NCBI RefSeq assembly: GCF_003334765.1
Contig: NZ_QOWT01000009.1
Source: Escherichia coli
GTDB lineage: Bacteria > Pseudomonadota > Gammaproteobacteria > Enterobacterales > Enterobacteriaceae
Length of the DNA stretch: 64,000 nt
Direction: 5' to 3' (one strand)
How positions within the stretch are numbered: position 1 is the first letter of the stretch; every line of letters starts with the position of its first letter. Under the pieces are notes generated by a model. That model did no database searches and was not told where the DNA came from. It worked only from the letters and a program-made list of their open reading frames with translations. Of the stretch, positions 1-3,567 are shown piece by piece. Position numbers and translations under genes: made by a program.

Positions 1-1166
1 GTGTTAACCCGGTTCGTGGTCAGAACAACGTTCAGGGTGCCTGCGATATGGGCGCGCTGCCGGATACGTATCCGGGATACCAGTACGTGAAAGATCCGGC
101 TAACCGCGAGAAATTCGCCAAAGCCTGGGGCGTGGAAAGCCTGCCAGCGCATACCGGCTATCGCATCAGCGAGCTGCCGCACCGCGCAGCGCATGGCGAA
201 GTGCGTGCCGCGTACATTATGGGCGAAGATCCGCTACAAACTGACGCGGAGCTGTCGGCAGTACGTAAAGCCTTTGAAGATCTGGAACTGGTTATCGTTC
301 AGGACATCTTTATGACCAAAACCGCGTCGGCGGCGGATGTTATTTTACCGTCAACGTCGTGGGGCGAGCATGAAGGCGTGTTTACTGCGGCTGACCGTGG
401 CTTCCAGCGTTTCTTCAAGGCGGTTGAACCGAAATGGGATCTGAAAACGGACTGGCAAATCATCAGTGAAATCGCCACCCGTATGGGTTATCCGATGCAC
501 TACAACAACACCCAGGAGATCTGGGATGAGTTGCGTCATCTGTGCCCGGATTTCTACGGTGCGACTTACGAGAAAATGGGCGAACTGGGCTTCATTCAGT
601 GGCCTTGCCGCGATACTTCAGATGCCGATCAGGGGACTTCTTATCTGTTTAAAGAGAAGTTTGATACCCCGAACGGTCTGGCGCAGTTCTTCACCTGCGA
701 CTGGGTAGCGCCAATCGACAAACTCACCGACGAGTACCCGATGGTACTGTCAACGGTGCGTGAAGTTGGTCACTACTCTTGCCGTTCGATGACCGGTAAC
801 TGTGCGGCACTGGCGGCGCTGGCTGATGAACCTGGCTACGCACAAATCAATACCGAAGACGCCAAACGTCTGGGTATTGAAGATGAGGCATTGGTTTGGG
901 TGCACTCGCGTAAAGGCAAAATTATCACCCGTGCGCAGGTCAGCGATCGTCCGAACAAAGGGGCGATTTACATGACCTACCAGTGGTGGATTGGTGCCTG
1001 TAACGAGCTGGTTACTGAAAACTTAAGCCCGATTACGAAAACGCCGGAGTACAAATACTGCGCCGTTCGCGTCGAGCCGATCGCCGATCAGCGCGCCGCC
1101 GAGCAGTACGTGATTGACGAGTACAACAAGTTGAAAACTCGCCTGCGCGAAGCGGTACTGGCGTAA
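1..1166 (+). CDS. fdhF: Formate dehydrogenase H, C-terminal portion (gene starts upstream of window)
   Basis: Open frame from position 3 (VNPVRGQNNVQGACDMG...) to stop at 1164-1166; molybdopterin oxidoreductase sequence recognised as E. coli FdhF C-terminus; the Sec/UGA codon and SECIS lie outside the window. Confidence 0.9.
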   Translation, partial: VNPVRGQNNVQGACDMGALPDTYPGYQYVKDPANREKFAKAWGVESLPAHTGYRISELPHRAAHGEVRAAYIMGEDPLQTDAELSAVRKAFEDLELVIVQDIFMTKTASAADVILPSTSWGEHEGVFTAADRGFQRFFKAVEPKWDLKTDWQIISEIATRMGYPMHYNNTQEIWDELRHLCPDFYGATYEKMGELGFIQWPCRDTSDADQGTSYLFKEKFDTPNGLAQFFTCDWVAPIDKLTDEYPMVLSTVREVGHYSCRSMTGNCAALAALADEPGYAQINTEDAKRLGIEDEALVWVHSRKGKIITRAQVSDRPNKGAIYMTYQWWIGACNELVTENLSPITKTPEYKYCAVRVEPIADQRAAEQYVIDEYNKLKTRLREAVLA

Positions 1167-1180
1167 TACCGTCCTTTCTA

Positions 1181-1208
1181 CAGCCTCCTTTCGGAGGCTG
1201 TTTTTTTA
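1181..1208 (+). terminator. Rho-independent terminator after fdhF
   Basis: Hairpin cagcctcc-tttc-ggaggctg followed by T-run ttttttta. Confidence 0.7.
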
Positions 1209-1259
1209 TCCATTCGAACTCTTTATACTGGTTACTCCCTACCCAATCGTATTATCAAA

Positions 1260-1949
1260 ATGAAAAAAATTATCGCATTGATGTTGTTTTTGACATTCTT
1301 TGCCCACGCCAACGACTCCGAGCCTGGCAGCCAGTATTTAAAGGCAGCAGAGGCCGGGGACCGACGCGCACAATATTTTCTTGCCGACAGCTGGTTTAGC
1401 TCCGGCGATTTGAGCAAAGCCGAATATTGGGCACAGAAAGCCGCCGACAGCGGTGATGCTGATGCCTGCGCGCTGCTGGCGCAGATCAAAATCACCAATC
1501 CGGTCAGTCTGGACTATCCACAAGCAAAAGTTCTTGCAGAGAAAGCGGCGCAAGCGGGCAGTAAAGAAGGTGAAGTAACGCTGGCGCATATTCTGGTAAA
1601 TACTCAAGCGGGTAAACCGGATTATCCAAAGGCAATTTCGCTGTTAGAAAACGCCTCGGAAGATCTGGAGAACGACTCTGCCGTCGATGCCCAAATGCTG
1701 CTTGGTTTGATTTACGCCAACGGCGTGGGCATTAAGGCCGACGATGACAAGGCAACCTGGTATTTCAAACGCAGCTCTGCAATTTCCCGAACCGGTTATT
1801 CCGAGTACTGGGCGGGAATGATGTTCTTAAACGGTGAAGAAGGTTTTATCGAGAAGAACAAGCAAAAGGCGCTGCACTGGTTGAACCTGAGCTGTATGGA
1901 AGGGTTTGATACCGGGTGTGAAGAGTTTGAAAAATTAACCAACGGTTAA
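1260..1949 (+). CDS. yjcO: Sel1-repeat protein with N-terminal signal peptide
   Basis: 229 aa ORF; signal-like N-terminus MKKIIALMLFLTFFAHA; repeated Ala/Gly/Trp-rich Sel1-like units; position between fdhF and gltP as in K-12. Confidence 0.85.
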   Translation: MKKIIALMLFLTFFAHANDSEPGSQYLKAAEAGDRRAQYFLADSWFSSGDLSKAEYWAQKAADSGDADACALLAQIKITNPVSLDYPQAKVLAEKAAQAGSKEGEVTLAHILVNTQAGKPDYPKAISLLENASEDLENDSAVDAQMLLGLIYANGVGIKADDDKATWYFKRSSAISRTGYSEYWAGMMFLNGEEGFIEKNKQKALHWLNLSCMEGFDTGCEEFEKLTNG

Positions 1950-1950
1950 G

Positions 1951-2218
1951 ATAGGCCTGATAAGACGCGGCAAGCGTCGCATCAGGCATTGATGTCGGAT
2001 GCGGCGTAAACGCCTTATCCGACCTACAAAATCACGCTAAATCAGGCTATTGCGCTGTCTGGCGTAGGCCTGATAAGACGCGTTAAGCGTCGCATCAGGC
2101 GTTGATGTCGGATGCGGCATAAACGCCTTATCCGACCTACAAAATCACGCTAAATCAGGCTATTGCGCTGTCTGGCGTAGGCCTGATAAGACGCGGCAAG
2201 CGTCGCATCAGGCATTCA
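1951..2218. repeat. BIME/REP array: about 2.3 tandem copies of a ~113 bp unit built from REP palindromes
   Basis: Unit starting aggcctgataagacgcg..cgtcgcatcaggc recurs at 1954, 2066 and 2179; contains gccttatccgacctaca REP motifs. Confidence 0.85.
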
Positions 2219-2253
2219 CACATTGCCGGGTGGATATCCCCGGCAATCTTCAA

Positions 2254-3567
2254 TTATTGATCCGCAGTTTTATCAAATTTGCCCAGCACTTCACGCTCAT
2301 AAGCCAGCGCTTTCTTACGGTCAAATTTGTGTTCCCACTTGGCAATCACCAGCACCGCCAGCGCATTACCCACCACGTTCAGCGCAGTACGCGCCATGTC
2401 GAGGATACGGTCAACACCAGCAATAAACGCCAGACCTTCCAGCGGAATACCTACGCTACCCAGCGTTGCCAGCAACACCACAAACGACACGCCAGGCACG
2501 CCAGCAATCCCTTTCGAGGTCACCATCAGCGTCAGCACCAGAATGATTTCCTGCCAGATGGACAGGTCAATGCCATACAACTGCGCGATGAAGATAGCGG
2601 CAATACTTTGATACAGCGTCGAACCATCAAGGTTAAAAGAGTAACCGGTCGGCACCACGAAACTGGTGATCGACGCCGGTGCTCCGTAGGCTTCCATCTT
2701 CTCAATAATTCGCGGCAGCACGCTTTCAGAGCTGGCAGTGGAGTACGCCAGAATCAGCTCATCTTTCAGAATACGAATCAGGATCCAGACGCTTAACCCG
2801 CACAGGCGCGCCACAATTCCCAGCACTACCAGCGCGAAGAACAGAATGGCGAAATGCACCAGCAGCACCAGTTTCGCCAGTGGCCACAGAGACGAGAAAC
2901 CAAAGTTAGCCACCGTCACCGCAATCAGCGCAAACACACCCACCGGTGCATAACGCATCACCATGTGAGTCACTTTAAACATGGTTTCAGAGATGGAGCG
3001 GAACACGGTCACCAGCGGTTCACGATGCGTCGCGGGCAGGGAAGAAAGCCCCAGACCAAACAGCACCGAGAAAAAGATGATCGGCAGCATTTCGCCTTTC
3101 GCCATCGACGCCACAATGTTCGTCGGCACCAGCGACAAAATCGTGCCCATAATGCCGTGGGAACTGCTTTGTACCGCTTCCGTAGTGCTCTGATATTTCG
3201 AGATATCGACGGTCGCCAACTGCGACATATCCACCCCGGCACCGGGCTGGAAGACGTTCGCCAGAGTGATCCCCAAAATGATGGCGACGGTGGTGATCAC
3301 CTCGAAGTAGATAATGGTTTTCGCGCCAATACGCCCGAGCTGTTTGGCATCACCAACACCCGCGATACCCACCACCAGCGTGGAGATCACAATCGGCACA
3401 ACAATCATTTTAATCAGATGGATGAAGATATCACCCGCCGGAGAGAGCAAATTGACGACCAGCCAGTCGCGGCTGTCGCTATGGTAGTGCAGGTAGCTTC
3501 CCAGGAGAATGCCCAGCACCATAGCAAACAGAATCTGCCAGGCCAGGCTGAATTTTATATTTTTCAT
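2254..3567 (-). CDS. gltP: Glutamate/aspartate:proton symporter
   Basis: 437 aa ORF; dicarboxylate/amino acid:cation symporter sequence recognised as E. coli GltP; length matches. Confidence 0.95.
   Translation of the reverse strand: MKNIKFSLAWQILFAMVLGILLGSYLHYHSDSRDWLVVNLLSPAGDIFIHLIKMIVVPIVISTLVVGIAGVGDAKQLGRIGAKTIIYFEVITTVAIILGITLANVFQPGAGVDMSQLATVDISKYQSTTEAVQSSSHGIMGTILSLVPTNIVASMAKGEMLPIIFFSVLFGLGLSSLPATHREPLVTVFRSISETMFKVTHMVMRYAPVGVFALIAVTVANFGFSSLWPLAKLVLLVHFAILFFALVVLGIVARLCGLSVWILIRILKDELILAYSTASSESVLPRIIEKMEAYGAPASITSFVVPTGYSFNLDGSTLYQSIAAIFIAQLYGIDLSIWQEIILVLTLMVTSKGIAGVPGVSFVVLLATLGSVGIPLEGLAFIAGVDRILDMARTALNVVGNALAVLVIAKWEHKFDRKKALAYEREVLGKFDKTADQ

Follow-up and report, generated by a model that had tools for sequence, protein, structure and literature searches.

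Within a 64,000-nucleotide stretch of Escherichia coli chromosomal DNA (contig NZ_QOWT01000009.1; hereafter the window), we analysed yjcO, which runs from ATG to TAA at positions 1260..1949 of the plus strand (229 codons plus the stop). With a probability of roughly 60%, we interpret its product as a repeat scaffold for an envelope ligand, soluble in the periplasm and stabilised by a disulfide. In the structural models, mature YjcO is a compact alpha-solenoid composed of five Sel1-like repeats (SLRs) with N- and C-terminal caps. The gene is already known; it is annotated, and the structure of an ortholog was released in 2011. YjcO is an E. coli ‘y-gene’ product that is universally conserved and has a solved ortholog structure but no assigned function, and identification of the ligand would fill a small hole in the enterobacterial cell-envelope map.

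The precursor has 229 residues, and its mature part is an acidic protein of 212 residues (about 23 kDa, isoelectric point 4.6). In the AlphaFold models (predicted local distance difference test, pLDDT, of 85.6 from the single sequence and 90.9 with an alignment), the mature part is entirely helical, its twelve helices lying in pairs, as in an SLR solenoid, where tandem units of ~33–44 residues each contribute an antiparallel helix pair to an alpha/alpha stack. The top fold matches are all SLR or tetratricopeptide repeat (TPR) proteins. KPN_04481 of Klebsiella pneumoniae, a ‘putative Sel1 repeat protein’ solved at 1.65 Å (Protein Data Bank, PDB, entry 3RJV), aligns with YjcO residues 20–229 at 70% identity (E 2.4e-95) and superposes on the model with a root-mean-square deviation of 1.4 Å; the two folds are essentially identical, and the proteins, neither of which has been assigned a function, differ by sequence divergence only. 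According to PMC3851747, the 3RJV structure is unpublished and has its fifth repeat packed back on the repeat 2–3 loops, which gives it a more compact shape than that of an open superhelix. An earlier note on this DNA had described YjcO as made almost wholly of Sel1-like repeats, and structure prediction, which did return a repeat fold, bears this description out.

The order of the repeats can be followed along the plus strand. An N-terminal capping helix (residues 22–33, 1323..1358), placed from the AlphaFold models, precedes repeat 1 (residues 34–66, 1359..1457; helices 35–48 and 51–63), which is seen in the models and matched by the Pfam Sel1 profile at residues 37–66 (E 0.01). Repeats 2 and 3 are divergent: repeat 2 (residues 67–101, 1458..1562; helices 67–79 and 86–98) lies below Pfam significance and is delimited by the models and the full-length alignment to 3RJV, and repeat 3 (residues 102–140, 1563..1679), delimited by the models, is a site of natural in-frame insertions and deletions. 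Repeat 4 (residues 141–180, 1680..1799; Pfam Sel1 at 143–173, E 5.5e-5) is highly conserved (DAQMLLGLIYA.G ... SRTGY), and repeat 5 (residues 181–216, 1800..1907; Pfam Sel1 at 181–215, E 7.6e-6) ends in the invariant Cys212. The C-terminal capping helix (residues 217–229, 1908..1946), supported by the models and the ortholog alignment, carries the invariant Cys220. Altogether, the Sel1 profile (PF08238) matches YjcO three times at the independent E-values just given, and PF08238 is precomputed for all YjcO orthologs.

Export of YjcO to the periplasm is predicted from its N-terminus. The Sec-type signal peptide MKKIIALMLFLTFFAHA (residues 1–17, 1260..1310) consists of MKK, an 11-residue hydrophobic core (IIALMLFLTFF) and AHA, and is followed by NDSEPG, so that the predicted signal peptidase I cut after Ala17 would separate MKKIIALMLFLTFFAHA from ND. 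The pattern is present in all 42 distinct YjcO orthologs from which our conservation statistics were drawn; each keeps a lysine or arginine among its first five residues, an uncharged stretch of 11–17 residues and small residues at positions -3 and -1, shortly before the conserved (E/D)PGSQ(Y/F) start of the fold. The residues of the segment themselves vary freely among the orthologs. Retention of the pattern while the residues turn over is what a functional Sec signal would be expected to show. We found no lipobox cysteine in the N-terminus, and YjcO is predicted to be soluble and not lipid-anchored because it lacks this motif; its charge, a core of at least 10 residues and the small -3/-1 residues complete the profile of the Sec/signal peptidase I class. 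Both AlphaFold models give the signal segment a low pLDDT and place it apart from the fold. The alignment with the 212-residue 3RJV chain starts with residue 3 of that chain opposite YjcO residue 20, a counterpart of the signal peptide being absent. We envision that the precursor would be exported by Sec and cleaved by signal peptidase I after Ala17, the mature protein then staying soluble in the periplasm. The signal peptide claimed by the earlier note is thus retained as a prediction, the orthologs giving no sign of a non-functional signal.

Mature YjcO contains three cysteines, Cys70, Cys212 and Cys220. A comparison of these residues had been proposed earlier, and it separates them cleanly: Cys70 is unpaired and variable, other genera having Y, W, L, I, F, S or V in its place, whereas Cys212 (codon at 1893..1895) and Cys220 (codon at 1917..1919) are invariant in 42/42 orthologs. 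Cys212 sits at the end of the last repeat helix and Cys220 at the start of the C-terminal cap, with CX7C spacing. In the Helicobacter cysteine-rich protein (Hcp) family, successive repeats are held together by a disulfide that runs from the end of one to the beginning of the other (PMC3851747), and C212-x7-C220 is a putative Hcp-type CX7C staple of this kind. Formed in the oxidising periplasm, a Cys212–Cys220 disulfide would fasten the last repeat to the C-terminal cap.

The open reading frame (ORF) at 1260..1949 is a real gene and not a chance ORF. RefSeq places fdhF, yjcO and gltP under window positions 1100..2300 (99.9% match, E. coli strain ML35); yjcO itself is annotated at 99.9–100% identity, coding sequences identical to it (100%) carry the name yjcO in many E. 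coli genomes, and the ORF listing agrees exactly with the gene name and coordinates that had been assigned from the letters of the window. The coding sequence was detected in 5419 of 5426 complete E. coli genomes and is present as a single copy of at least 80% length in 5417 of them (99.8%). When one genome per species was scanned, an ortholog (64–99% protein identity) was found at 43 Enterobacteriaceae loci, in Escherichia, Citrobacter, Salmonella, Kluyvera, Raoultella, Klebsiella, Pluralibacter, Trabulsiella, Yokenella and Enterobacter; further orthologs, from Shigella and Buttiauxella, came from a protein database search, and none of its best 120 matches lay outside the Enterobacteriaceae. 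By full-length high identity at the syntenic fdhF–yjcO–gltP locus, the window protein belongs to this ortholog group.

The gene is under clear purifying selection, as its dN/dS ratio (nonsynonymous over synonymous divergence) is 0.03–0.13 (Nei–Gojobori, against 11 species). Invariant positions make up 40% of mature YjcO, and conservation is densest in repeats 4–5 and the C-terminal cap. At the larger distances, dN of yjcO exceeds that of its neighbours fdhF and gltP by a factor of 2–6; its dS, measured against Salmonella, Citrobacter and Kluyvera, is 1.1–1.9, compared with 0.6–1.1 for the flanking genes. The higher dS would fit a gene with weak codon bias and low expression, and suggests a weaker constraint on codon usage or a different local history. 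Two minus-strand ORFs that overlap the region (1232..1498 and 1338..1607) are probably shadow ORFs within the conserved yjcO frame.

No catalytic domain or motif was found in YjcO, whose family matches are solely Sel1/TPR repeat models. No dedicated NCBIfam hidden Markov model matched YjcO, and NCBIfam returned only weak AlgK and MerG matches; the model for AlgK-type lipoproteins (NF038194) scores 27.2 bits against a cutoff of 700, and the lipobox of that class is absent. Among the PADLOC-DB defence profiles, 0 families matched at E <= 0.01. Searches of solved homologs with the single sequence and with a 24-sequence profile yielded generic Sel1-repeat proteins only as functional clues. The best characterised E. 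coli relative by sequence profile is the SLR protein EsiB (c5321) of uropathogenic E. coli (PDB 4BWR, E 1.9e-22), from which YjcO is distinguished by its five repeats and its status as a core gene. Eukaryotic SEL1L (PDB 5B26), a membrane-anchored endoplasmic reticulum (ER) protein that serves with HRD1 as an adaptor in ER-associated degradation, has only the repeat module in common with YjcO.

The genomic surroundings provide no partner for YjcO. Upstream lies the 3' end of fdhF (48..1166, plus strand) and downstream the convergent gltP (2254..3567, minus strand), both from the ORF listing and RefSeq, and the order fdhF–yjcO–gltP is kept in all informative loci among the 43 related loci compared. 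fdhF encodes formate dehydrogenase H of formate hydrogenlyase, a fermentative and not a respiratory enzyme, and the earlier description of this neighbour as respiratory has to be dropped; the respiratory nrf genes lie beyond gltP. In the window, fdhF and yjcO are 93 bp apart; in Trabulsiella, Yokenella and Enterobacter sp. JUb54 (loci L036 and L041–L043), the spacer between the fdhF and yjcO matches is roughly 440–630 bp. An intrinsic terminator of fdhF (1180..1201, plus strand; 9-bp stem with 6 G–C pairs, 4-nt loop and TTTTTTT), found by a terminator search, begins 14 nt past the fdhF stop codon and insulates yjcO from fdhF transcription. Its hairpin and T-run are conserved in our upstream alignment, which comprises 11 regions from Escherichia, Citrobacter, Salmonella and Kluyvera.

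In E. albertii, a five-gene ATP-binding cassette (ABC) transporter operon, coding for a substrate-binding protein, two permeases and two ATPases, stands between the fdhF terminator and yjcO (locus L001, 821..5891), and the sequence just 5' of the yjcO ATG is still recognisable beyond it. The same island occurs in 1044 of the 5426 complete E. coli genomes (19%), with yjcO still annotated intact at 690 bp; its position was confirmed in E. coli HS13-1 (locus L045, 2622..7692). It is absent from the window, where the insertion point corresponds to approximately position 1199. Since yjcO can do without its link to fdhF, and the island varies between genomes, we regard neither neighbour as a persuasive candidate for a partner. 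No type VI secretion system (T6SS), two-component, cell-wall or secretion gene lies next to yjcO, and the only constant neighbours across the 43 loci are fdhF and gltP; the comparison yielded no partner, in agreement with the earlier observation that none is encoded nearby.

We propose that YjcO would act as a binding module or scaffold for an envelope protein, peptide or muropeptide ligand. That it may serve envelope assembly or signalling as an adaptor is a reasonable suggestion by analogy with other Sel1 proteins, and our sequence analysis points to no unusual mechanism. A more specific version of the scaffold idea, which does not contradict it and which we consider unlikely, is that YjcO inhibits or regulates a particular envelope enzyme or sensor in the periplasm. 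The models for this are Sinorhizobium ExoR, which acts on the sensor kinase ExoS, to which it binds, and Legionella EnhC, an inhibitor of the lytic transglycosylase Slt; YjcO has an architecture of the same kind, being a soluble protein made of a predicted Sec signal and Sel1-like repeats only, with no catalytic domain. However, it resembles no characterised regulator beyond the generic repeat, its best PDB matches are all SLR proteins that are either uncharacterised or unrelated in function, no linked kinase or hydrolase gene was found, and the literature that we found reports no yjcO phenotype. Sel1-like repeat proteins are also known to act as T6SS immunity proteins (PMC7108748), and YjcO could be an orphan of the Tli5/Sel1E type that neutralises an incoming effector in the periplasm; we regard this as very improbable. 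Pseudomonas PA5087/Tli5 (PDB 5JKP) and Klebsiella Sel1E are likewise small all-repeat proteins, and act by binding a protein; 5JKP is found among the YjcO fold matches at rank 37, and the 2–6-fold faster evolution of YjcO relative to FdhF and GltP is what a conflict gene might display. Nevertheless, 5JKP is a distant fold match that ranks far below generic SLR proteins and does not match at the sequence level. T6SS Sel1 immunity genes adjoin their effector, often in tandem arrays, whereas yjcO is solitary, its neighbours being fdhF or the ABC operon on one side and gltP on the other, with no adjacent effector, VgrG or T6SS gene in the window or the 43 related loci; it is also a single-copy core gene at a fixed locus, not part of a variable island, and its low dN/dS gives no sign of diversifying selection. 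A dedicated periplasmic inhibitor, either an orphan immunity factor directed at incoming Sel1-neutralisable toxins or an ExoR/EnhC-like brake on an envelope enzyme or sensor, would, if true, explain a partnerless core gene that evolves several times faster than its neighbours, but we hold this conjecture to be doubtful.

Hcp proteins bind penicillin and muramic acid, and binding of peptidoglycan fragments or beta-lactams, as proposed for HcpA/HcpB, would be a further role for YjcO, though one to which we give little credence. HcpB and HcpC of Helicobacter (PDB 1KLX, 1OUV) are fold and sequence relatives that, like YjcO, consist entirely of Sel1-like repeats and are secreted or predicted to be so, and YjcO possesses one Hcp-style CX7C pair. 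The Hcp proteins, however, have a disulfide at every repeat junction, whereas YjcO has its putative pair at the last junction only and, with this one conserved pair, falls outside the Hcp family as defined by a Cys pair per junction; identity is ~20%, and Hcp is a pathogen-specific expanded family whereas yjcO is a core enteric chromosomal gene. A joint role of YjcO with formate dehydrogenase H or formate hydrogenlyase might be read from the position of yjcO directly 3' of fdhF on the same strand, in an order conserved across the ten genera sampled, yet gene order is broadly conserved in this family anyway. FdhF is a cytoplasmic enzyme and YjcO carries an export signal; moreover, a strong terminator separates the two genes, and the ABC operon has been inserted between them in E. 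albertii and in the 1044 E. coli genomes with yjcO left intact, so that the chance of such a partnership appears slight in the extreme. The idea that yjcO is a decaying or functionless remnant could draw on the lack of a known phenotype and of a Shine–Dalgarno sequence, and on the tolerance of rare in-frame indels and of a large deletion of its 3' end in the long-term evolution experiment (LTEE). It is effectively refuted by the conservation data: the gene is core in 99.8% of genomes with dN/dS of 0.03–0.13, and the different genera have kept both its signal peptide and its cysteine pair. An ortholog, in addition, was crystallised at 1.65 Å.

Several points also weigh against the scaffold reading that we prefer. 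The scaffold role is drawn only from the general behaviour of the Sel1-like repeat family, and a linked partner gene for YjcO was not found. Three of the five repeats reach the Pfam Sel1 model, one of them at E 0.01 only. Given how the fifth repeat packs in 3RJV, the usual concave groove may be partly closed, and binding may take place on another surface. The promoter call given below is a conserved TATACT hexamer and not a mapped start, and no experiment on YjcO export, disulfide or ligand was found in the literature.

We envision that yjcO would be transcribed alone, from a weak promoter located between the fdhF terminator and the ATG, with its 3' end in a downstream array of repetitive extragenic palindromic (REP) sequences forming a bacterial interspersed mosaic element (BIME). 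A candidate -10 hexamer, TATACT (1224..1229, plus strand), is invariant in the 11 aligned upstream regions, in which neither a good -35 element nor a Shine–Dalgarno sequence precedes the ATG (window 1201..1259), and the promoter scan found no sigma-70-like site upstream of yjcO. A TATACT hexamer next to a poor -35 recalls promoters of the sigma-S type; the usual sigma-S C at -13 is absent here. A sigma-E-type promoter, ‘GAACTC’ at 1216..1221, was rejected, as it is not conserved in Citrobacter or Salmonella. Genomic systematic evolution of ligands by exponential enrichment (SELEX) placed a constitutive RpoD promoter in the fdhF/yjcO spacer with no sequence assigned (PMC3946193), and the 5' part of yjcO is transcribed and translated in LTEE clones (bioRxiv preprint 10.64898/2026.01.05.697752).

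The 3' flank is of a different kind. No intrinsic terminator was found 3' of the yjcO stop codon on either strand; the yjcO–gltP spacer holds a REP/BIME array (1952..2216), common to yjcO and the convergent gltP, in which a 113-bp unit is repeated 2.3 times to give five REP hairpins (1955–1987, 1994–2023, 2068–2100, 2107–2136 and 2181–2213). The REP-derived Rfam family naRNA4 matches the array on the minus strand above its gathering threshold (79 and 71 bits). The transcription unit had been called terminator-flanked, which holds upstream, where the fdhF terminator stands at 1180..1201, and fails downstream, where only the REP/BIME array is present. The BIME copy number varies among E. coli strains (many matches cover 84% of the query in two pieces), and several resequencing papers report ‘mutations’ in this repetitive spacer, which looks like a known hot spot or a region of mapping artefacts.

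None of the papers that we read among those mentioning yjcO and E. coli assigns the gene a function, and several state that it is unknown. The gene is mostly mentioned on account of apparent mutations in the repetitive spacer between it and gltP. The remainder include an incidental YjcO E222G change in C43(DE3), the presence of yjcO on a single multicopy-suppressor plasmid that also carried other genes, and a 1.28-fold change of yjcO expression in an rcsB mutant. In LTEE population Ara+1, a 57.5-kb deletion that was selected removed the 3' end of yjcO and fused the gene to lysU (bioRxiv 10.64898/2026.01.05.697752).

Natural length variants of yjcO are rare and in frame, and remove or add repeat-sized pieces within window 1458..1620, in repeats 2–3 (P0007, P0001 and P0019). 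Shigella sonnei and S. flexneri share an 18-residue deletion of YjcO residues 101–118, and the short direct repeat CAAGCGGG, at window positions 1551 and 1605, flanks the deleted segment. Other variants are a 20-residue duplication and a 35-residue deletion, the latter being one repeat in length. In one E. coli protein of 351 residues (P0025), the last ATPase of the ABC transporter island is predicted to be fused to YjcO residues 60–229, without the YjcO signal peptide; this looks like a deletion-born fusion akin to the yjcO–lysU fusion of the LTEE.
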